Source: a virus
Strand: one strand, 5' to 3'
Length of the DNA: 64,000 nucleotides
Virus record (IMG/VR): IMGVR_UViG_3300025127_006147
Location: 1-64,000 of that record
Below the pieces are notes generated by a model, which saw nothing but the letters and a program-made list of their open reading frames with translations, was not told where the DNA came from and made no database searches. This document shows, in pieces, positions 38,103 to 49,628 of this stretch (the first letter of the stretch is position 1; each line of letters starts with the position of its first letter). A program made the position numbers and the translations under genes.

Positions 38103-41100
38103 ATGGCAACAGACGGAAAAGTTTTTGTATCCCCAGGGGTATACACGTCAGAGAAAGATTTAAGTTTCGTAGCACAAAGTGTGGGAGTAACAACACTTGG
38201 TTTAGCTGGTGAAACTCTTCAGGGTCCTGCTTTTGAACCTATTTTCATAAGTTCATATGGAGAATTCCAAACCTATTTCGGTTCATTAAACCCAGAAAAG
38301 TTTACGGAAACACAAATCCCTAAATACGAATTATCATATATAGCAAAAGCATATTTACAACAATCTAATCAGTTATTTGTGACTAGAGTATTAGGTTATT
38401 CTGGATATGACGCTGGACCTTCTTGGTCAATAACAACAATAGGTAACCCTGATTGTGAAACTATTAGAACTCAGTGTGCTGACACTACAAGTACAGTATA
38501 TAGTGCTTCTACATGTAACACTGGAACGGCTTTTGAGTCAACTAGTGGTTCTACTGCTGTGGTAAATAGTGGTTCTGTTGGGTTATACTTTACTGGAGGG
38601 ACTGACGTTTGGACTGATTCATCCACAACTGTTAAACCTATTGATTCTTTACCTTGGCCTATTTCTGAAAAAATAAATGAAACTTTAACAAAAACAGATG
38701 GTAGTAGTACAACTATTTCTGCCGAGTTAGATAGTATGTTATCTACATATTACTCTAGTTTATCACACATAGCAGTATGTGCAACTGGAGGTACCCCATG
38801 TTTCTTACCTATGACAGGAGGAACTAGTGTAGAAAAAGCTTTTGGTTGTAACTATGATGGAGATACGGTTTCAGGAAATACATTATATGAAGGAACATAT
38901 TTAGAAAATGCAGGAACACCAGCATCTTCAGGATACACTTACCAGTCTAAATTTAGTGGTATAACAGAAACACAAGTTTTAGGTTCTTCTTGTAACCCTA
39001 AACCTTCAGTATTCTGTAATGACATTAACGACCCTTGGTTATACGGATTCTTTGACCTAGTTCCTGGAACAGACCAGTATACTGGTTTCTCAATGAGTAT
39101 CGGTATCAATACTAATGATGTTTTAGATATTAGTACATCCGCTCAAACAACATTATATTCTGGAGATTCTGCTTTAAGATTCTCTTACACATTATATACA
39201 GGAGAAACTTTCTGTAACTACAACGATTTAGTAGTCGCAACTTTCCGTTCAAGAGGTGTAAGTACACAAAATTCAGGTGGACCTGTTTATCAAGTAACTG
39301 GTGGAACAGATGTTACAATGGTTTGTACGGGAGACACTTTCTCCAAAGTAAATACTGACCCATTTGCCACTTTTGGTATGGATGTTACAGATAAAGACGG
39401 TGATTCATTTAGATTTGAAACTTCTATGTCTCCATCATCTAAAGACTTTGTTAAACGAGTATTTGGGGTGGCACCGTTTGATAAACAAATGGAACAAGTT
39501 CCAATCTTTGTAGAGGAAGCTTATCCTAACATGTTAACATACGCTTATAAGAAGGGTTACATTAAAGGATTAAACTGTAGTCTACTAGATTTACCTTCAT
39601 TTAGAGATTCTAATAATACTGGAACTATTGGTTTCTACCAAGAACAATGGCAAACCCCAGTAACACCTTATGTTGTTTCTGAACTAAGAGGTACCAAAGT
39701 ATATAAATTATTTAGATTTATATCTATATGTGATGGTAACGCAGCTAACACACAAGTTAAAATATCTATTGTTAACATTTCATTTGAAAGAAATGAATTC
39801 GATGTGTTAGTTAGAAGTTTCTATGACACAGACGCTTCACCAGTTGTATTGGAAAGATATACAAGATGTAGTATGAATCCTAATTTGAACTCTTTTGTTG
39901 GGGTTAAAATTGGTACCGCTAATGGTGAATATGAATTGAAGAGTAGATACATTATGGTAGACTTAGACCCAGAACAAGAGACTGACACTAACCGTCATGA
40001 TGCTGTTCCTTGTGGATTCGAAGGTTATGTGACTAGAAATTACTTAGGAGAACAAAGTCCTACATTATACTATAAAACAAAATATAATAAACCAGGTGAT
40101 ATAATCTGGAACCCACCTTTCGCTGTAAGTTCAACTGTGGATAACTCAGTGATAAGTGCGGGAGATAAAATTAGAAGAGTTTATTTAGGTATTTCTGATA
40201 CTGCAGCTTCAGCTTATGACGATGACTTCTTCCAATATAAAGGAAAACAAGCACCTACAGATAAATGTAATGATTTAGATGGTACAGACTGGAATTGTTT
40301 AACTCAAGGATTCCATATGGATAGTGGAGCGACTTGTGTAAATACTTTAGGTGAGTTATGTGTAACTACACTTTGTAAAAATTGTGGTACTGGAACAACA
40401 ACTGAAGACCAGTTCGCTGTTGGTGTAGCACCGTTTAGAAGTGAACCAACTAATTCACAGGACCCATACTACACATTACAGTCTAGAAAATTCACATTAG
40501 CACCGTATGGTGGTTTTGATGGATGGGACATTTATAGAAAATCAAGAAGTAACGGAGATAGTTATGTTAGAGGTAAATCAGGGTTCTTAAACGGAGCTTG
40601 TACTTCAACTACATTCCCTAACGCGTCTGGTGATGGTTCATTTAAACTATTATCAAGCACTCCTTGGGGTGAATCAGGATTCTTCGCAACAACTGACTAT
40701 TACGCTTATTTCTTCGGTATTAGAACATTTAGAAACCCAGAAGCGGTTAACATTAACGTATTAGCAACACCAGGTATTGACTATGTAAACAATAGTAACC
40801 TTGTAGAGGAAACAATTGACATGGTAGAAACTGAAAGAGCTGATTCACTGTATGTTACTACAACACCTGACTACAACTTGTTTGTACCAGGAGCTACGGT
40901 AGCGGCAAACATAATCCAACCTACTGAAGCGGTAGATAACTTAGATTTAACAGCAATCGATTCTAACTACACCGCTACTTACTACCCATGGGTACAGTAC
41001 AACGACCAAGAGAACAATACAAGAGTATGGTTACCACCTACTTATGATGTAATGAGAAACATTGCTTTAACAGATAATATCTCATTCCCTTGGTTCGCGT

Positions 41101-41582
41101 CCGCTGGTTACACTAGAGGTATTGTAAACGCGGTTAAAGCTAGAAAGAAACTTACTCTTGATGAAAGAGATACGTTATACGCTGGTAGAATTAACCCAAT
41201 CGCAACTTACTCAGATGTTGGTACTATTATCTGGGGTAACAAGACACTACAAAGTAGACAATCTGCATTAGACAGAATCAACGTTAGAAGATTGTTACTA
41301 CAGGCTAGAAAATTAATTTCGGCAGTAGCAGTTAAATTGTTATTCGAACAAAATGACGAACAAGTAAGAAACGAATTCTTAGACTTAGTTAACCCAATCT
41401 TAGACTCTATTAGAAGAGAGAGAGGTTTAACAGACTTTAGAGTTGTTCTTTCTGACGACCCACAATTGATTGACCAAAATACATTAGAAGGTAAGATTTA
41501 CATAAAACCAACTAGGTCTCTAGAATTTATCGATATCGAATTCTTAATTACACCTACTGGAGCATCATTTGAAAATGTATAA
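38103..41582 (+). CDS. Contractile tail sheath protein (gp18-like) with large insertions
   Basis: N-terminal SPGVYTSEKDLS; C-terminal WFASAGYTRG, RINPI, IWGNKTL, DRINVRRLL, RSLEFI. Confidence 0.95.
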   Translation: MATDGKVFVSPGVYTSEKDLSFVAQSVGVTTLGLAGETLQGPAFEPIFISSYGEFQTYFGSLNPEKFTETQIPKYELSYIAKAYLQQSNQLFVTRVLGYSGYDAGPSWSITTIGNPDCETIRTQCADTTSTVYSASTCNTGTAFESTSGSTAVVNSGSVGLYFTGGTDVWTDSSTTVKPIDSLPWPISEKINETLTKTDGSSTTISAELDSMLSTYYSSLSHIAVCATGGTPCFLPMTGGTSVEKAFGCNYDGDTVSGNTLYEGTYLENAGTPASSGYTYQSKFSGITETQVLGSSCNPKPSVFCNDINDPWLYGFFDLVPGTDQYTGFSMSIGINTNDVLDISTSAQTTLYSGDSALRFSYTLYTGETFCNYNDLVVATFRSRGVSTQNSGGPVYQVTGGTDVTMVCTGDTFSKVNTDPFATFGMDVTDKDGDSFRFETSMSPSSKDFVKRVFGVAPFDKQMEQVPIFVEEAYPNMLTYAYKKGYIKGLNCSLLDLPSFRDSNNTGTIGFYQEQWQTPVTPYVVSELRGTKVYKLFRFISICDGNAANTQVKISIVNISFERNEFDVLVRSFYDTDASPVVLERYTRCSMNPNLNSFVGVKIGTANGEYELKSRYIMVDLDPEQETDTNRHDAVPCGFEGYVTRNYLGEQSPTLYYKTKYNKPGDIIWNPPFAVSSTVDNSVISAGDKIRRVYLGISDTAASAYDDDFFQYKGKQAPTDKCNDLDGTDWNCLTQGFHMDSGATCVNTLGELCVTTLCKNCGTGTTTEDQFAVGVAPFRSEPTNSQDPYYTLQSRKFTLAPYGGFDGWDIYRKSRSNGDSYVRGKSGFLNGACTSTTFPNASGDGSFKLLSSTPWGESGFFATTDYYAYFFGIRTFRNPEAVNINVLATPGIDYVNNSNLVEETIDMVETERADSLYVTTTPDYNLFVPGATVAANIIQPTEAVDNLDLTAIDSNYTATYYPWVQYNDQENNTRVWLPPTYDVMRNIALTDNISFPWFASAGYTRGIVNAVKARKKLTLDERDTLYAGRINPIATYSDVGTIIWGNKTLQSRQSALDRINVRRLLLQARKLISAVAVKLLFEQNDEQVRNEFLDLVNPILDSIRRERGLTDFRVVLSDDPQLIDQNTLEGKIYIKPTRSLEFIDIEFLITPTGASFENV

Positions 41583-41608: not shown

Positions 41609-43558
41609 ATGAAACTTAATTATAAAAAACAAAAATTAGTAGAAAGTTTAGGTTTTAACGTAAATTTCAAAAACCATTATGGTAATAAACCACAAAACGT
41701 TAAAGTAACACCAGACCAGTTCAAAAGATTAATGGAGTCTTACTTAGTATATGAGGAAGAAATACACAAGGAAGAGGAGGATTTAGAGTTAGCAGAATTC
41801 TCTGATTCATTCCAAGACGAACTTGACCAAGACATATTAGATGAAATGGATATGGAAAAAGAAACCAAAGAAGGGTATGGTAAAAAACATATGGACGAAA
41901 TGAACTTTGGTGATGACGGTGGTTTGAATTTACCTTCAGATGTAGATATGGATACTGAAAACGACAATAACCCGATTGATTTAGATGAATATGGTTATCA
42001 GTCTATTGACCATTCTGATAGAGACGAGTTCGATGGTAGAAAATCTAGAGTTGTTGGGGTATATTCAGACATTAACAAACAACGTTATGGGATGAATGAA
42101 GATTCTGAAGGAGAGGAAACATATCACTACGATGAAGATTTACACCATGACAGAGATGAATTACATCATTTAGAACGTGAAAGAAGTCACGCTCATGGTG
42201 GACATAAGTCCGACCTAGACCAACATATCGCAGCTCTAATTGATTCAATGAAGTATGACGATAAAAGAGGTGTGGGTAAAGATGATATGTACAGAAGAGA
42301 ACCAGGAACACACTTTTACCATGAAGGAAACGGTTTAGCGGAATCTGTTGACAAAACTTTTAAAATGATTAGAGAATCTATTAGAAGAGAAAGACCAAAA
42401 GGTTTAAGAATGAGTAACTATAGTAGAAAAACTTTAAATGAACAATTTGTTGGTTATACTGAAATGGGTGAACAATTCTATGGTGGTAGAGGTAACTACA
42501 ATAATCCTGGAGTAAATGCCGCTAAGGGTATTGAAGAGTTAGTTAAGAACATTAAAAAAGCTTATAACTTTATTAAAGATTCAAGAACTAGAAAACAAAT
42601 TGAAAACACCTTAGTTAAGTTACAAAACTTTATGGCTATCACAGCTGACGCAGTTATGGCAGGTAAACAACAAAGAGCACCTAGAAGAAATGACCAATTA
42701 ACTAGACCATTACCTTATCCTGAATTAGACGAACCAGAAGATTTAGAGGATATTGATGATGAGTTAGATTTAGATTCACTTAATGAGTCCCAAAAACGTA
42801 GTTTGGTTAGAGAAGCTAAAAGAGAGTTGAGAAGAAGAGCTTTAGTTGAAGAATTTTATTTACTTAACGAACAGGACGGAAAAGATAAAATTAAACAGTT
42901 AAAAGACGCTTTAAAAAGAGAAAGACAAGCTAAAAGAGATTTAAACAAACTAGGAAGAAAAGAACAAAGAGAAGAAAGAAAAAAAGCTAGAGAACAAAGA
43001 AAAGAACTCAAAAAATTCGAACAACTATGTTCTAAATTTCCAGACGCTCCAGAATGTTCTGATAAAGATGAATTCGTAAAAGATGTTGAACAAGAAATTA
43101 CAAAGGTAGAAGTTGCAACAAAAGATGCGGAAAAAGATTTCCAAAAACCCCCATCTGGGATACCAGATAAAAAACCTGGTGATTCGGTTAGTGGAAAAGA
43201 AACATCAAAGTTATGTCAACTAAAAGGAGACAAAACCTATGAGTATAAAGTAGAAAATGATGAGTGGTACAGTAGAAAAAGAGGTACAACTAAATGGAAC
43301 TCATTAGCTGGAGATAAATTTACTTTAGCAAGAGCAAGGTTAGATAAAGGTTGCCCAACGTTTAGAAAAACTAAAGAAGAAATGCCAGATGACGCGGTTA
43401 GTTCACAGGAAGATAAAGTGAGTTCAGCTACACAAACAAATGACCCAGATTCTTGGAAATCAAATATTCCAGGAAATGACCCAAAAAAGGACGCTGAAGC
43501 AAGACAAAGAGCCAGAGAATTTGCAGCTATGGGGTACCAAGGTTATTCAGGTAATTAA
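41609..43558 (+). CDS. Acidic, His-rich, coiled-coil hypothetical protein (possible internal head/scaffold protein)
   Basis: ORF track; D/E-rich blocks, His cluster, K/R/E coiled coil, repeated L/M/I-x-E-S/Q junctions. Confidence 0.7.
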   Translation: MKLNYKKQKLVESLGFNVNFKNHYGNKPQNVKVTPDQFKRLMESYLVYEEEIHKEEEDLELAEFSDSFQDELDQDILDEMDMEKETKEGYGKKHMDEMNFGDDGGLNLPSDVDMDTENDNNPIDLDEYGYQSIDHSDRDEFDGRKSRVVGVYSDINKQRYGMNEDSEGEETYHYDEDLHHDRDELHHLERERSHAHGGHKSDLDQHIAALIDSMKYDDKRGVGKDDMYRREPGTHFYHEGNGLAESVDKTFKMIRESIRRERPKGLRMSNYSRKTLNEQFVGYTEMGEQFYGGRGNYNNPGVNAAKGIEELVKNIKKAYNFIKDSRTRKQIENTLVKLQNFMAITADAVMAGKQQRAPRRNDQLTRPLPYPELDEPEDLEDIDDELDLDSLNESQKRSLVREAKRELRRRALVEEFYLLNEQDGKDKIKQLKDALKRERQAKRDLNKLGRKEQREERKKAREQRKELKKFEQLCSKFPDAPECSDKDEFVKDVEQEITKVEVATKDAEKDFQKPPSGIPDKKPGDSVSGKETSKLCQLKGDKTYEYKVENDEWYSRKRGTTKWNSLAGDKFTLARARLDKGCPTFRKTKEEMPDDAVSSQEDKVSSATQTNDPDSWKSNIPGNDPKKDAEARQRAREFAAMGYQGYSGN

Positions 43559-44842: not shown

Positions 44843-45283
44843 ATGAAATTAGCACTTTTTGACTTTGATAATACATTATTTAAAACCCCTTATGACGAAA
44901 GTCCAAGTTATATGGATAAACCAGAAAGTTTATCAATACGTAAATGGAAATTCGAACCAATACTTGAGACTATAAAAAAGTTTAAAGAATGTAAAAAAGA
45001 AAAAAATACGAAAGTTATTTTACTTACAAATAGAATTGACAATGTTTACTCAGAATTAAAGACTTTATTAGAGGAATACGGTTTGGTATTTGACGACTAC
45101 AAAATGATTATTGGTGTGGATGGTGATAGGTCTAAAGGTAAACGAGTAAAGGACTTGATATTAAATAATAACGTGGGTTCTGTTGAGTATTGGGAAGATA
45201 AAGATAAACATATAGAAGATGTCAAAAACACCATGGACTTTTTTCCAGAGATAGAATTAAAAATAAATAAAGTAGTTATTTAA
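44843..45283 (+). CDS. HAD-superfamily phosphatase
   Basis: LALFDFDNTLFKTP (motif I), LLTNR (II), K (III), YWEDKDKHIE (IV). Confidence 0.85.
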   Translation: MKLALFDFDNTLFKTPYDESPSYMDKPESLSIRKWKFEPILETIKKFKECKKEKNTKVILLTNRIDNVYSELKTLLEEYGLVFDDYKMIIGVDGDRSKGKRVKDLILNNNVGSVEYWEDKDKHIEDVKNTMDFFPEIELKINKVVI

Positions 45284-45929
45284 TTCTATTAATACTACCA
45301 GTAGCCCTTTCTCCTTTAGGTAAATCTCTAGTATTATCTACAATCCAATAATTATCTACCATAGGAATTAAATCTTTAACAACTCTTCTAACTTTATCGT
45401 GATAATCAATAACCATGTCTCTAGGTAAACTTCGGTCTCTTTCTTGATTTCTCTCCAAAGCTTTATCCAATTCTGTAACAACATGAACTATAGTTACAGC
45501 ATAACCATTGTCTTTAGCTAAATTAATTACATCATTCATAACTTGTCTTTGACCACCACCCGCATCATATACAATATTAGGTGTGTGATTTCTCTCCACC
45601 TCTAAAAAGTTCTTTAAAAATCTAATAGTTAAATTTCTAGGGTCTGATGTGGTATATGACATATCTAATATCTTTTTATAACCCTCGTCAGTAGAAATAT
45701 TTTCTTTCCAAGAATCACCCCAGATTTTTTTAGCTAACGCTACTCTATAGTTGTCTACATTAAATTGTTTGTAATCAGGTAAGTCTATAAAGTTTTGTGT
45801 AACGAAACTTTTTCCCGCACCTGGGCCACCAGCAATAATTACAAAATTACCCTGAGGTCTATCAAATCCAACTACCCTGGACTCAACAAACATTAATCTT
45901 TTGATTTTCTCAATTTCTTTTAGTAGCAT
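45276..45929 (-). CDS. P-loop nucleotide kinase (zeta-toxin/AAA_33/PNK-like) with N-terminal leader
   Basis: IIAGGPGAGKS, FNVD, VYDAGG, ALERNQERDR lid. Confidence 0.82.
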   Translation of the reverse strand: MLLKEIEKIKRLMFVESRVVGFDRPQGNFVIIAGGPGAGKSFVTQNFIDLPDYKQFNVDNYRVALAKKIWGDSWKENISTDEGYKKILDMSYTTSDPRNLTIRFLKNFLEVERNHTPNIVYDAGGGQRQVMNDVINLAKDNGYAVTIVHVVTELDKALERNQERDRSLPRDMVIDYHDKVRRVVKDLIPMVDNYWIVDNTRDLPKGERATGSINRIK

Positions 45930-45937
45930 ATCTTTAT

Positions 45938-45951
45938 ATAAATATATTTAT
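45938..45951. promoter_or_regulatory. Back-to-back late-promoter palindrome ATAAATATATTTAT
   Basis: Gives TATTTAT on each strand, facing the divergent kinase and deoC genes. Confidence 0.62.
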
Positions 45952-45973
45952 TAATGATAATAATACAATAATC

Positions 45974-46780
45974 ATGAACACAAAATTACTTATCGAAAGA
46001 ATGATGAGATTAATGGAAATAGAAGACATTAAGTCTGATATTTCAAATTATCTCGATTCAACGTATTTAAAAACATCAGAACAAGCTGGTATCTCAGACG
46101 AAGAAACTAAAAACAACGTTATGTCATTATTAGATGACGCTTTAAACCATAATATGAAATTAGTTATGGTAAGACCAGAACAGGTAGAATTAGCCAGAGA
46201 AGTAATAGACCAAAGAAACGGTAATACTTTAGTTGGTACAGTAATTGATTTCCCGTTTGGAAATGGTAGTACTTCAGATAAAGTTAATGAAGCTAAAAGA
46301 GCCATTAATATGGGTGTAGATGAAATTGATTATGTAACGGACTATAAATCTTTTAAGGCAGGAAATATAGAAAAATTTATTAGAGACATTGTAGATGGAA
46401 CCAGGGTTGGTATGGATGCTGGTAAAGTTGTTAAGTGGATTATAGAAAGTGAAGCTCTTACAAACCAAGAAATACAAGACATAACTCAGCTTATCAGAGA
46501 TGTGGTAGTTAATGAGTTTGGTGAGATACCAGCATCATCTGTTTTTGTTAAAACATCTACGGGATTTTTTAACGGTGAAAAACCAAATCCTGAAAAAACT
46601 AAAGAAGAAGACGTAATAATTATGTCTCAAAATGCTGGACCACTGAGGGTTAAAGCTTCTGGTGGTATTTATACTATAGACGATTTAAATAAAATGGTTA
46701 AAGCTGGAGCTAGTAGAATCGGAACTTCAGCTGCCAAAGAAATAATACGTGGTGATAAAGACGTTATAAAAGATTATTAA
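45974..46780 (+). CDS. deoC: Deoxyribose-phosphate aldolase with N-terminal leader
   Basis: LDSTYL, TVIDFPFG, DEIDYV, VKWIIE, FVKTSTG (Schiff-base Lys), VKASGGI, GASRIGTS. Confidence 0.92.
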   Translation: MNTKLLIERMMRLMEIEDIKSDISNYLDSTYLKTSEQAGISDEETKNNVMSLLDDALNHNMKLVMVRPEQVELAREVIDQRNGNTLVGTVIDFPFGNGSTSDKVNEAKRAINMGVDEIDYVTDYKSFKAGNIEKFIRDIVDGTRVGMDAGKVVKWIIESEALTNQEIQDITQLIRDVVVNEFGEIPASSVFVKTSTGFFNGEKPNPEKTKEEDVIIMSQNAGPLRVKASGGIYTIDDLNKMVKAGASRIGTSAAKEIIRGDKDVIKDY

Positions 46781-46781
46781 A

Positions 46782-47663
46782 ATGAGTAAACGAATTAGAC
46801 AAATAATTAGAGAACAAGCTGGATTAAATTTATCCGTACAGGATGAAATCGGTAATTTGAACCCTAATGAAAGACAACAAATTAAGGGAGCGTTAATAGA
46901 TTTATTAAATAATAATCCAGAACAGGAAATGTCAGAAATAGAGTATGGTGGTATTCCTGAGTTAAAAGCTACTGGTTTAGTAGGTAAAATAGGTAAGTGG
47001 TTTAAAAGATTCTTAACAGATAAAGCTTCAGACTATTTAATCGACGCTAGTGCACAAGAAATGGAGGACACCATAAAATTAATTGACGCGTTAGACCCTA
47101 ATGACTTGACTGGTATATTCACTCCTAGAGCAATGTATTTAGGTGGTGGTATAGATTTTGCTGATGACGCGTTGTCATGGAGAACTCAGGTTGAGAACTT
47201 TTTTGGTCCTGGTCACGTAGTTAAAGGAGATAAATTATTTGAGTTAATTACCACGGGTAACATGAGTTTTAAAGGTCTTGATACTCCAGCAATACTTAAT
47301 CCATTAAGAGCAGAAACAGTAAGAGATGAAGACGATGAATTTCAACAAATGTTTAAACAGTGGAAAGCTGGTGAACTAGACGGACAGACATTCCAAAAAT
47401 TTAGAGAAAAGATTAGAGAACAAATAGTTGTACAAGATTTATATATGTTAAAAGTGTGTGACACTAACCTAATTAATTTTGATGGTACTGCTGGAGCTGG
47501 AACATTCGGAGAAGCTCAGTTTAGTGCTTTGAAAAACTCACAAATCTTTGTTTGGTTAACTAACGGAATGAAAATATCTAACATCTCTCCATGGATGATG
47601 CCCTCAATAACCAAAATTCTTCAAGAAGACGAACTTTGGCCTTTCTTGTCTAACTTCAAATAA
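46782..47663 (+). CDS. Nucleoside 2-deoxyribosyltransferase / DNPH1(RCL)-like N-glycosidase with ~100-aa N-terminal extension
   Basis: MYLGGG..SWR..LNPLR..DLYMLKVCD..AGTFGEA (catalytic Glu position)..SPW. Confidence 0.7.
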   Translation: MSKRIRQIIREQAGLNLSVQDEIGNLNPNERQQIKGALIDLLNNNPEQEMSEIEYGGIPELKATGLVGKIGKWFKRFLTDKASDYLIDASAQEMEDTIKLIDALDPNDLTGIFTPRAMYLGGGIDFADDALSWRTQVENFFGPGHVVKGDKLFELITTGNMSFKGLDTPAILNPLRAETVRDEDDEFQQMFKQWKAGELDGQTFQKFREKIREQIVVQDLYMLKVCDTNLINFDGTAGAGTFGEAQFSALKNSQIFVWLTNGMKISNISPWMMPSITKILQEDELWPFLSNFK

Positions 47664-48332
47664 ATGAATCTTGTCAGAAGAATATTAAGAGAATACACTG
47701 AACAACCATTAAATGAACTAGCTAGAACTAATCGTTTAATAGTTCTTGACGTTGACGATACATTACTTAAACCTTCTGGTGTATACATCTATAGAAATTT
47801 ACCTTCAGACCCCCAAGAAATTGCATTAACACCTTACGAATACGGTTTAGAAAACGTAACCCCAGAAACGAAACAATATTACGACTATAGGGACTTTTTA
47901 GACCCAGTAAAAACACAACAATCAATAGAACAAGCTGAACCAATAGTTACTAACTTATCAGTAATGGACGATTATTTAAAATTAGGTCATCAGATAGCTA
48001 TATTAACAGCAAGGTCTAATGAACAGGTTGTTTTTGACGGATTAAAACAATGGTTAATGTATAAAGACAGAAAAGGTAACCTAATACCAATAGGGGACCG
48101 TCTAAATAGAGAAAACGTATTTGCGGTAAACGACACCAACAGAATGAGTACACTAGAGTCGGAGACTGATTATGAAAAAAAGGCGGAGATAATGGAAAAA
48201 TTAGTTAAAGTTTATGACGAAATAGTTTTCATAGATGATGATATGAAAAATATTAAACAAATGAAGATGTTAAAAAGAGATTTACCGGAAGAGCTTGCTA
48301 AGAAATTATTTGTAATGCATGCTAAAGAATAA
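47664..48332 (+). CDS. HAD-superfamily phosphatase (PNK-phosphatase-like) with N-terminal leader
   Basis: LIVLDVDDTL, ILTAR, EKK, FIDDDMKNI. Confidence 0.85.
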   Translation: MNLVRRILREYTEQPLNELARTNRLIVLDVDDTLLKPSGVYIYRNLPSDPQEIALTPYEYGLENVTPETKQYYDYRDFLDPVKTQQSIEQAEPIVTNLSVMDDYLKLGHQIAILTARSNEQVVFDGLKQWLMYKDRKGNLIPIGDRLNRENVFAVNDTNRMSTLESETDYEKKAEIMEKLVKVYDEIVFIDDDMKNIKQMKMLKRDLPEELAKKLFVMHAKE

Positions 48333-48478: not shown

Positions 48479-48967
48479 ATGGCTGACTTATTAATGAAAA
48501 TGCCCATACCGTATGAACCTAAAAAGAAAAATAGGTTTATCTTAAGATTCCCTTCGTCGTTGGGTATTAATGAGTGGTATGTGGAAAGTACTTCTAGACC
48601 TGCTGTTAATATTAACCCAGTAGAAATCCCTTTCTTAAACACATCTACTTATGTAGCTGGTAGATTTACATGGAACACAATCAGTGTGACATTTAGAGAC
48701 CCTATAGGACCATCAGCGTCACAAGCACTTATGGAGTGGGTAAGATTACACGCAGAATCTGTAACAGGTAGAATGGGTTACGCTGCAGGATATAAAAAGG
48801 ACATCGATTTAGAGATGTTAGACCCTACAGGTGTTGTAGTTGAAAAGTGGATAATGCAAGGAACATTCTTAACAGACGTTAACTTCGATAGTTTAGGATA
48901 TAGTGATGATGCAATTGCAACTATTTCAGCAACCTTGAGACCAGATAGATGTATATTAGTATACTAA
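48479..48967 (+). CDS. Tail tube protein (T4 gp19-like)
   Basis: YEPKKKNRF, WNTISVTFRDPI, ALMEW, YKKDIDLEMLDPTGVVVEKW; TATTTAT at 48438-48444. Confidence 0.9.
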   Translation: MADLLMKMPIPYEPKKKNRFILRFPSSLGINEWYVESTSRPAVNINPVEIPFLNTSTYVAGRFTWNTISVTFRDPIGPSASQALMEWVRLHAESVTGRMGYAAGYKKDIDLEMLDPTGVVVEKWIMQGTFLTDVNFDSLGYSDDAIATISATLRPDRCILVY

Positions 48968-48987: not shown

Positions 48988-49016
48988 AAAACCCGTACTT
49001 AGTGTATGGGTTTTTT
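48988..49016. terminator. Intrinsic terminator (probably bidirectional)
   Basis: AAAACCCGTAC-TTAGT-GTATGGGTTTTTT between the tail tube and the convergent Mom-like gene. Confidence 0.8.
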
Positions 49017-49628
49017 ATTTAAAGGAGCTTTGTTTTTTATTTTAGGGTAAGGTTTTTCTTCCCATAAACAATTTAGTGTTTTATCAAAAACCATTAAGTA
49101 CCTGTGTTTACGTTCACGAGGTCGCCATTCACCTTTTTTACCTTTAACTGGACCTCTCTGATGTTTAACAAAAGAACCATCCCCTAACTCAAACCAAAAG
49201 TCTTTTTTAGAGTCAGTTAAACCGTAATATTTAAAATTTGTGGCTTGATATATAAAACCAGTGTGTAGAGAAGAATCTGCATAAGATAGTATGGACCTAA
49301 CCGTTGTTTCTTTTTTTAATTTTTTTATACATCTAGAAACAAACCAAGACAATATGTTCTTTTCTTTAATTTGAGGGTCTAAACATAAACGACCTAATTC
49401 ATATACACCGTTTTGTTCTGTTCTACTTAAACCAAAACAGCCTTTTAATGTTTCGGGTACCGATGGAGAGTGAAACACACAAACACCAACTAAAACAGTA
49501 TCCTTATATAAACCAAAATTAAAACCAGTTCTAAAGCCTTTACTTTTTTTATTTAAATAATGATATTGTGAAAGTATGGACTTACATAAATCTTTACTTA
49601 TTATTTGTATGTTATAGGTTTTATTCAT
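48999..49628 (-). CDS. Mu Mom-like GNAT-fold DNA-modification protein
   Basis: YHYL, VGVCVF, YELGRLCL, SWFVSRCIKKL, LSYAD, HTGFIYQATNFKYYG. Confidence 0.7.
   Translation of the reverse strand: MNKTYNIQIISKDLCKSILSQYHYLNKKSKGFRTGFNFGLYKDTVLVGVCVFHSPSVPETLKGCFGLSRTEQNGVYELGRLCLDPQIKEKNILSWFVSRCIKKLKKETTVRSILSYADSSLHTGFIYQATNFKYYGLTDSKKDFWFELGDGSFVKHQRGPVKGKKGEWRPRERKHRYLMVFDKTLNCLWEEKPYPKIKNKAPLNKKPIH

Follow-up and report, generated by a model that had tools for sequence, protein, structure and literature searches.

The locus

The IMG/VR virus record IMGVR_UViG_3300025127_006147 is a contig of 194 kb with an estimated completeness of 61%. Its positions 1 to 64,000, the 64,000 nucleotides (nt) that are referred to here as the window, contain a cluster of enzyme genes set among the genes for the phage tail. 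Central to this cluster are DeoC (45974-46780, + strand), which codes for a deoxyribose-phosphate aldolase (DERA) of 268 amino acids (aa), and an open reading frame (ORF) that follows it after a gap of 1 nt (46782-47663, + strand) and codes for a 293-aa protein related to the nucleoside 2'-deoxyribosyltransferases (NDT) and DNPH1, hereafter the NDT-like protein. The gene for a HAD phosphatase (HAD-B, 47664-48332, + strand) comes next with a gap of 0 nt, a kinase gene (45276-45929, - strand) diverges from DeoC, and a second HAD gene (HAD-A, 44843-45283, + strand) overlaps the kinase gene tail to tail. The tail sheath gene (38103-41582, 1159 aa) lies on the upstream side of the cassette and the tail tube gene (48479-48967) on the downstream side, with the baseplate hub further on. 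An earlier note on this DNA had described the genes from kinase to HAD-B, and the ORFs, their coordinates, the gaps and the position between sheath and tube are exactly as it claimed; HAD-A lies just beyond the interval that it covered.

At least 12 studies have metagenomes (marine, seawater and estuary) in which the stretch recurs. Among 50,697 phage records blastn found none that matches the cassette, and the sole tblastn match for the NDT-like protein is a 735 kb uncultured megaphage (25% identity), so that these searches point to no cultured relative.

DeoC and the NDT-like gene are conserved as a pair

Close homologues of the NDT-like gene are present in 19 IMG/VR loci, and in every one of these loci DeoC is the gene directly upstream. 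Twelve of these keep the layout sheath, HAD-A, kinase, DeoC, NDT-like gene, HAD-B, tube; the other seven have the pair only, in the unrelated context of genes for an M42-like peptidase, a SprT-like protease, a ClpB-like ATPase and Hsp70. The order is reversed at the distant homologue P0150 (27-33% identity), whose gene is followed immediately by DeoC, and in L030 an NDT-like paralogue is divergent from DeoC. When the scan was started from DeoC, an NDT-like gene was present within 3 kb in 12 of about 42 distant viral DeoC loci; in two of the 12 this gene is of a short, stand-alone form and adjoins DeoC. The kinase and HAD-B behave differently. Both are kept in the wider group, yet the relative G001, 93% complete, has the kinase gene about 10 kb and the HAD-B gene about 125 kb away from the pair, and a second lineage has neither of them in the neighbourhood of the pair. 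Judged by gene order, the conserved unit is therefore the pair, and the kinase and HADs appear to be lineage-specific neighbours. The proposal of a four-gene co-conserved cassette made in the earlier note has to be given up on this point, since the kinase and HADs adjoin the pair in one lineage only, whereas the functional coupling of DeoC and the NDT-like gene that it also proposed is supported by their strongly conserved adjacency. Indeed, the conservation of the pair as a unit is the strongest evidence that the NDT-like enzyme makes the substrate of DERA. No description of a physical pairing between a viral DERA and an NDT/DNPH1-like gene was found in the literature searched.

DeoC itself is predicted to be a true DERA of the class I aldolase family with its catalytic residues intact, as had been supposed. 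It scores 138.4 bits against TIGR00126, above the curated cut-off of 117.3, and matches solved DERAs with an E value of 3e-23. Residues D116, D119, K154, K193 (the Schiff-base lysine, in VKTSTG) and K227 (in VKASGG) align to those of solved DERAs and are invariant in 11 homologues. About 25 residues stand ahead of the canonical DERA start, and this extension holds two L/I-x-E sites, LIE8 and LME15. In a 298 kb relative (L012, 4917-6017) the DeoC ORF is 366 aa long, with an N-terminal extension of about 100 residues that is unlike the short leader seen elsewhere.

Several loci differ in what surrounds the pair or its NDT-like member. Of the proteins encoded around the pair in the second lineage (L019 4261-12064; also L020, L015 and L017), next to the M42-like peptidase, the SprT-like metalloprotease has a zinc ribbon, the ClpB-like one is a double AAA ATPase and the Hsp70 is full-length. 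Aldehydes can give rise to DNA-protein crosslinks, on which proteases of the SprT type act, and the presence of such a protease next to a DERA, an enzyme that releases acetaldehyde, may be coincidence. Among distant NDT-like family members without DeoC nearby, several abut a gene for a HAD or NT5C-type phosphatase instead, and two other lineages show a HAD or NT5C-like gene adjoining an NDT-like one. The 735 kb uncultured megaphage (L096, LR756501.1 233864-244688) has an NDT-like homologue with the leader MKNFTRFINE, preceded with a 4-nt overlap by the gene for a leader-tagged HAD-like protein of about 295 aa; this protein is 70% identical to the product of the gene downstream of the NDT-like gene in L028 (6143-7018). 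Neither L096 nor L028 has a DeoC within 5 kb of the NDT-like gene, and BLASTP found no significant similarity between HAD-B and these HAD-like neighbours. A short (151-aa) stand-alone NDT-like member in L025 (333-1344) lies directly upstream of a dGTP_diPhyd_N (MazZ-type) gene, which would link the broader family to nucleotide remodelling of the diaminopurine type.

Fold and active site of the NDT-like protein

The NDT-like protein comprises a leader (residues 1-11, 46782-46814) that ends in IRE, a linker of variable length (residues 12-60, to 46961) that ends in an invariant GIPE60, a helical subdomain (residues 61-105) and a catalytic domain (residues 105-293, 47094-47660). It gives no Pfam match and nothing meaningful in sequence searches of NCBIfam or the PDB, and PF05014/PF15891 are matched by eight of 31 more distant family members, at up to 5e-7. 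The protein belongs to a narrow family (54 clusters at 50% identity among 1.8 billion proteins), and its close homologues (60-70% identity) are encoded on contigs of 150-300 kb. One distant member, P0175 (412 aa), carries a LAGLIDADG homing-endonuclease domain (PF03161, 1.1e-27) N-terminal to its NDT-like domain.

A full-length AlphaFold2 model was poor (mean predicted local distance difference test score, pLDDT, 64), and Foldseek gave no match with it. The model of residues 105-293, built from a 41-sequence alignment, has a pLDDT of 94.9, and with this model Foldseek returned NDT, MilB, DNPH1, YtoQ and BcmB structures only, all at probability 1.0. The C-terminal domain is accordingly modelled with the flavodoxin-like NDT fold, which agrees with the NDT/DNPH1-like fold that had been guessed from the letters. 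VIA-align superposes it with Z scores of 10-12.7 over 114-141 residues (NDT 7o62, 12.7; 7m5h, 12.4; NDT 6evs, 12.2; DNPH1 9da6, 11.6; YtoQ, 11.4; MilB 4jem, 11.2), values that are too close to one another to assign the protein to a subfamily.

The catalytic residues are recognisable. In a weak hidden Markov model (HMM) alignment to the NDT of Chroococcidiopsis (CtNDT), D219 falls on the catalytic D62 and E244 on the nucleophile E88, and Y119, part of a YxxG motif in the first strand, aligns to Y7. All three residues are invariant in the family alignment (A4), in which the aspartate and glutamate are 25-26 residues apart, as in CtNDT. DNPH1 uses its catalytic pair, D80 and E104, likewise, and a tyrosine rather than a phenylalanine in the first strand tracks a preference for deoxyribose when DNPH1 is compared with MilB, in which the substitution F17Y moves preference toward deoxyribose (PMC10603095). 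The invariant Tyr119 fits a deoxy substrate in the light of this MilB effect.

The loop ahead of the catalytic glutamate reads G238-A-G-T241-x-x-E244, the same pattern as the phosphate-binding loop of the LOG nucleotide hydrolases. In CgLOG the residues G116-A117-G118-T119, together with the catalytic E122, bind the 5'-phosphate of AMP (PMC4979012). The corresponding ligands in DNPH1 and MilB are S98 and S97, six residues before the glutamate, with Arg23 of MilB, six residues after the first-strand aromatic residue, as a further phosphate ligand (PMC10603095). CtNDT and TbNDT have an aspartate six residues before the glutamate; the loop of the NDT-like protein is shorter, has glycine or alanine at that position and a conserved aspartate (D234) at -10. 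In nucleoside-specific NDTs (class I/II) the aspartate at -6 is the ligand of the 5'-hydroxyl. By analogy the LOG-like GAGT loop may take over the phosphate-binding role, and a nucleotide substrate would follow from that analogy rather than directly from the structure. On these features the NDT-like protein is best placed in a branch of its own within the NDT superfamily, one whose phosphate loop would be LOG-like.

Leader peptides and probable capsid targeting

The kinase, DeoC, the NDT-like protein and HAD-B all begin with leaders of 9-18 aa that end in L/I-x-E, and leaders are kept in homologues of DeoC and HAD-B. The NDT-like family starts with the consensus MKxxIKKILxE, in which E11 is invariant, and the variable-length linker and the invariant GIPE60 follow. 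Divergent members start with MKKYGEFINE, MKIIKNYENFINE or MKKLVGYNDFLNE and have a second site, (L/I/V)-N-E-S, at the same alignment column as GIPE60. Overall, the pattern M-x(4-14)-[LIVMFY]-x-E occurs within the first 16 residues of 116 of 118 close and 17 of 20 distant NDT-like representatives. The leaders of unrelated enzymes can be nearly identical, as with MKNLIKNILREE of the kinase and MKNLIKNILREQ of an NDT-like protein; DeoC homologues carry MLNEQIKRIKDLMLIKE, and distant ones MKLKKYTQFINE. HAD-A, the tail tube, the hub and the sheath have N-termini without such a leader.

These peptides resemble the capsid-targeting sequence (CTS) of T4, MKTYQEFIAE (PMC8442874), with which the divergent leader MKKYGEFINE agrees at 7 of 10 positions. 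The T4 prohead protease gp21 cleaves after L/I-X-E, and the ten CTS residues suffice to package and deliver foreign proteins (PMC9026906). Genes for gp21-family proteases (PF03420) are present in the records of three of five relatives, one of them 93% complete. In the relative G002 (L093, C1:49082-52699) a 1796-aa ORF has as its C-terminal domain a homologue of the kinase (59% identity), and the junction that precedes this domain, RLLRE followed by EKVVGF, is the same site that ends the free-standing leader. Given the conservation of the leaders, the proteases of the relatives and this polyprotein junction, processing by a head protease and loading into the capsid would be the most economical reading. 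The idea of virion delivery, which the earlier note had raised, thus gains support from conserved leaders of the T4 CTS type.

The same 1796-aa ORF of G002 also holds a HExxH zincin-like motif and long acidic linkers. Between the sheath gene and the cassette of the window lies the gene for a 649-aa protein without a family match (41609-43558, + strand); its leader is MKLNYKKQKLVE, followed by S, that of its relatives is MKKINLKKSNILE, followed by G, and it may be a further candidate for capsid cargo. In L030, L070, L079 and L060 many consecutive small ORFs around the NDT-like gene or DeoC start with MK..K(Y/F)..F..E, which suggests that distant viral loci, in giant phages, carry whole islands of CTS-tagged genes. 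L030 also has two NDT-like paralogues and a gene for NAD synthase.

The upstream motif

The spacer between the divergent kinase and DeoC genes holds a perfect 14-nt palindrome, ATAAATATATTTAT (45938-45951), and the back-to-back motif noticed there at first reading is borne out: the palindrome contains two back-to-back copies of the TATTTAT(A) motif found upstream of genes of this phage, one facing the kinase and one facing DeoC. Within it, the distance to the ATG downstream is 7 nt for TATTTATA, which precedes the kinase gene, and 21 nt for TATTTATT, which precedes DeoC. Across the 194 kb record, 36 of the 65 copies of TATTTATA are non-coding, in a sequence of which 4.7% is non-coding, and 31 copies sit 3-21 nt before a start on the same strand. 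The number of copies in the window is at the chance level (TATAAATA/TATTTATA, 18 observed versus 17.96 expected), so that the motif is non-random by placement alone and not by count. Its intergenic position close to starts nevertheless argues that it is a real regulatory element, and distances of 3-21 nt imply either very short leaders or a combined promoter and translation signal. Because TATTTATA also precedes non-structural genes, including those adjoining the helicase and polymerase genes, it is not callable as a late promoter from sequence alone, and the late control assumed for the cassette does not follow from it.

The kinase, the HADs and a neighbouring gene

The kinase (217 aa) is a P-loop kinase of the PNK/PSTK clade, PNK being polynucleotide kinase, and its leader has the sites LKE5 and FVE16. 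It matches AAA_33 (1.9e-10), Zeta_toxin (6e-7) and phrog_5268 (1e-17), and a profile of its family matches PSTK (3adb, 3e-6) and the kinase domain of CthPnkp from Clostridium thermocellum (4mde, 1.4e-3). HAD-B (222 aa) has the DxDxT motif as DVDDT and the leader sites ILRE10 and LNE18; it matches phrog_415 (1.8e-8), HAD-SF-IIIC (1.5e-4) and Acid_phosphat_B. HAD-A (146 aa) starts directly at its DxDxT motif (FDFDNT) and matches phrog_415 (3.8e-8) and, weakly, PNK3P and HAD_SAK_1. These assignments also suit an alternative offered in the earlier note, in which the kinase and HADs are parts of a split PNK, in that the kinase falls in the PNK/PSTK clade and the HADs in families of the PNK-phosphatase type. 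RNA ligases (PF09414 and PF09511, the latter searched without a positive control) were not found in four related records, and classical RNA repair by Pnkp plus ligase is for that reason not evident. The kinase and HADs may heal nucleic acid ends, interconvert 3'- and 5'-nucleotides, or dephosphorylate dNMP (2'-deoxynucleoside 5'-monophosphate) or 2-deoxyribose 5-phosphate (dR5P). Most likely they represent a separate end-healing or nucleotidase function that would have only the delivery route in common with the pair.

On the far side of the tail tube gene, before the baseplate hub, lies a Mom-like DNA-modification gene (48999-49628, - strand; PF25680, 3.9e-30) that is shared with L018 alone among the related loci. 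It looks like a recent insertion and hints at adenine modification of the phage DNA.

Proposed function and alternative explanations

We favour, with confidence only a little better than even, a two-gene module in which a dNMP N-glycosidase is coupled to DERA and both enzymes are probably packaged in the virion by means of their CTS-like leaders. The NDT/DNPH1-fold enzyme would most likely cut the N-glycosidic bond of a dNMP, with Glu244 forming the glycosyl-enzyme intermediate, Asp219 acting as the acid and Tyr119 placed at the sugar. The products of this step would be the free base and dR5P, which DERA would then split into glyceraldehyde 3-phosphate and acetaldehyde, so that the loss becomes irreversible. 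Given that their L/I-x-E leaders are like the CTS of T4, the leader-bearing DeoC, NDT-like protein, kinase and HAD-B would probably enter the prohead, be cleaved by a gp21-type protease and reach the host together with the ejected DNA, as Alt and the internal proteins of T4 do. The purpose of such delivery could be remodelling of the nucleotide pool, nucleotide sanitising, host shut-off or anti-defence at the start of infection.

Several observations weigh against this explanation. There is no obvious metabolic reason for injecting a few copies of catabolic enzymes, and some distant members of the NDT-like family have no DeoC within 5 kb. With regard to the substrate, the phosphate-binding serine that DNPH1 and MilB have six residues before the glutamate is Gly238 in the NDT-like protein, the arginine that MilB has six residues after the aromatic residue is Asp125, and the aspartate that the aligned nucleoside NDTs have at -6 is missing as well; with serine, arginine and aspartate ligands all absent, recognition of the 5' group cannot be read from the model. 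With regard to packaging, the phage's own record, 61% complete, gave no gp21-type protease. The bare motif [LIVMF]-x-E at residues 8-20 is not enriched (50 versus 43 of 163 ORFs), and the 31% of the phage's ORFs that have it in a wider span serve as an internal control only. N-termini rich in Lys, Asn and Ile could in part be due to AT-rich translation starts. With no genome-wide enrichment of the bare motif, it is conservation within families that carries the leader argument.

A broader version, which we put forward only tentatively and regard as possible rather than probable, is that widespread uncultured marine giant T4-like phages package a complete route for destroying deoxynucleotides, an NDT-fold dNMP N-glycosidase plus DERA, and inject it with the genome, so that it would act from the first moment of infection on molecules derived from deoxynucleotides of the host or of competitors. 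In some lineages this route would be accompanied by the PNK-like kinase and HADs, and its targets might lie, for example, in pool sanitising, host shut-off or deoxynucleotide immune signals.

Of the alternatives, the one that survives best holds that these are ordinary cytoplasmic genes of auxiliary metabolism, by which dNMPs from degraded host DNA are passed into central carbon and energy metabolism late in infection, the leaders being AT-rich starts or serving some other localisation. The chemistry would be identical to that of the packaged module, and the lack of genome-wide enrichment of the short leader motif and of a protease in the phage's own record would be expected. It is less easily reconciled with an invariant glutamate and a second conserved site (GIPE or L-N-E-S) that bracket a linker of variable length, with near-identical leaders on unrelated enzymes, with a distant leader that equals the T4 CTS at 7 of 10 positions, with the use of the same site to join the domains of a polyprotein in G002, or with the location of the genes among structural genes. 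We therefore regard this explanation as unlikely, though one to be taken seriously.

It is also conceivable, but improbable, that the NDT-like protein acts on nucleosides, exchanging a canonical base as a 2'-deoxyribosyltransferase or removing it as a hydrolase, with DeoC finishing a general catabolism of deoxyribose together with host enzymes. Nucleoside NDTs are the best structural matches (Z 12.7), the residue at Tyr+6 is acidic in place of the MilB arginine, and the short family member beside a MazZ-like gene would be at home in such a pathway. A phage NDT that prefers deoxyadenosine (dA) has moreover been reported and proposed for diaminopurine phages (bioRxiv 10.1101/2025.10.22.683976). 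However, DERA requires the 5-phosphate, and the pair has no linked gene for a deoxyribokinase or a phosphopentomutase. The LOG-like GAGT loop points to a nucleotide substrate, and the aspartate at -6 of the aligned nucleoside NDTs is absent. Enzymes of base replacement were also sought: ThyA (PF00303) was not found in the phage's own record, and ThyX, a PurZ-type adenylosuccinate synthetase and TGT/DpdA were not found in the four related records, so that, unlike in diaminopurine phages, there is no sign that a canonical base must be excluded.

Least probable is a single pathway of all five genes, in which the kinase and a HAD 3'-phosphatase turn 3'-dNMPs or breakdown products with a 5'-hydroxyl into 5'-dNMPs for the glycosidase and DERA, with a HAD to dispose of dR5P: the PNK clade of the kinase, the PNK-phosphatase type of the HADs, the HAD or NT5C-like genes that abut NDT-like genes in two other lineages, and kinase and HADs that would leave classical RNA repair without its ligase, as none was found in the four related records, would all suit it, but linkage of the kinase and HAD-B to the pair is confined to one lineage, and the PF09511 part of the ligase search had no positive control.

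DNPH1-type enzymes and DERA are each well known, and the apparently new element is the conserved viral pairing of both. Should the pair destroy dNMPs, marine phages would encode a compact and irreversible nucleotide sink. Should the leaders direct packaging, the internal-protein system of T4 would widen from small inhibitors and Alt to nucleotide-metabolising enzymes, and a portable system of leader plus protease would be available for loading the capsids of giant phages. An injected deoxynucleotide-destroying route would, if true, represent the first injected metabolic enzymes of such a kind. A distinct NDT branch with a LOG-like loop would also be useful for understanding how N-glycosidases choose their substrates.

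Comparison with known systems

Human DNPH1 has the same fold as the catalytic domain (Z 11.6, root mean square deviation 2.7 over 120 residues), with Tyr, Asp and Glu at equivalent sequence positions, and its product, dR5P, is the DERA substrate that is proposed here for the phage protein. It differs in showing no match at the sequence level and in having S98 where the phage protein has Gly238. The latter adds a helical insertion of about 50 residues (174-225) and an N-terminal extension of about 105 residues, and its gene is physically coupled to that of a DERA and begins with a leader peptide.

The nucleoside NDTs (PF05014, including those of diaminopurine phages) provide the best structural matches (7o62, Z 12.7; 6evs, Z 12.2) and a weak HMM alignment over the catalytic Asp and Glu, and distant members of the phage family match PF05014/PF15891. 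The phage protein, by contrast, falls under every Pfam threshold, lacks the aspartate six residues before the glutamate and has a shorter, glycine-rich loop. LOG, a cytokinin riboside 5'-monophosphate phosphoribohydrolase with the motif PGGxGTxxE, shares the identical pattern G-A-G-T-x-x-E, and in CgLOG this loop also supplies the catalytic glutamate (PMC4979012). LOG structures, however, lie outside the top 50 structural matches of the phage domain, and LOG acts on ribonucleotides with an Arg/Glu pair.

T4 Pnkp, in which a 5'-kinase is joined to a HAD 3'-phosphatase, finds its counterparts in a kinase of the PNK/PSTK clade and in HADs that match PNK-phosphatase families in PHROG and Pfam. Here the functions are on separate genes, no RNA ligase partner was found in the four related records, and in one relative the kinase is part of a polyprotein.

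The CTS system of T4 (IPI-III and Alt as cargo, gp21 as protease) is matched by leaders of 9-18 aa that end in L/I-x-E and by gp21-family proteases in relatives of the phage. The phage system differs in that its putative cargo would consist of nucleotide-metabolising enzymes and in its second conserved internal site. For an enzyme that is packaged and ejected, T4 Alt is the precedent.

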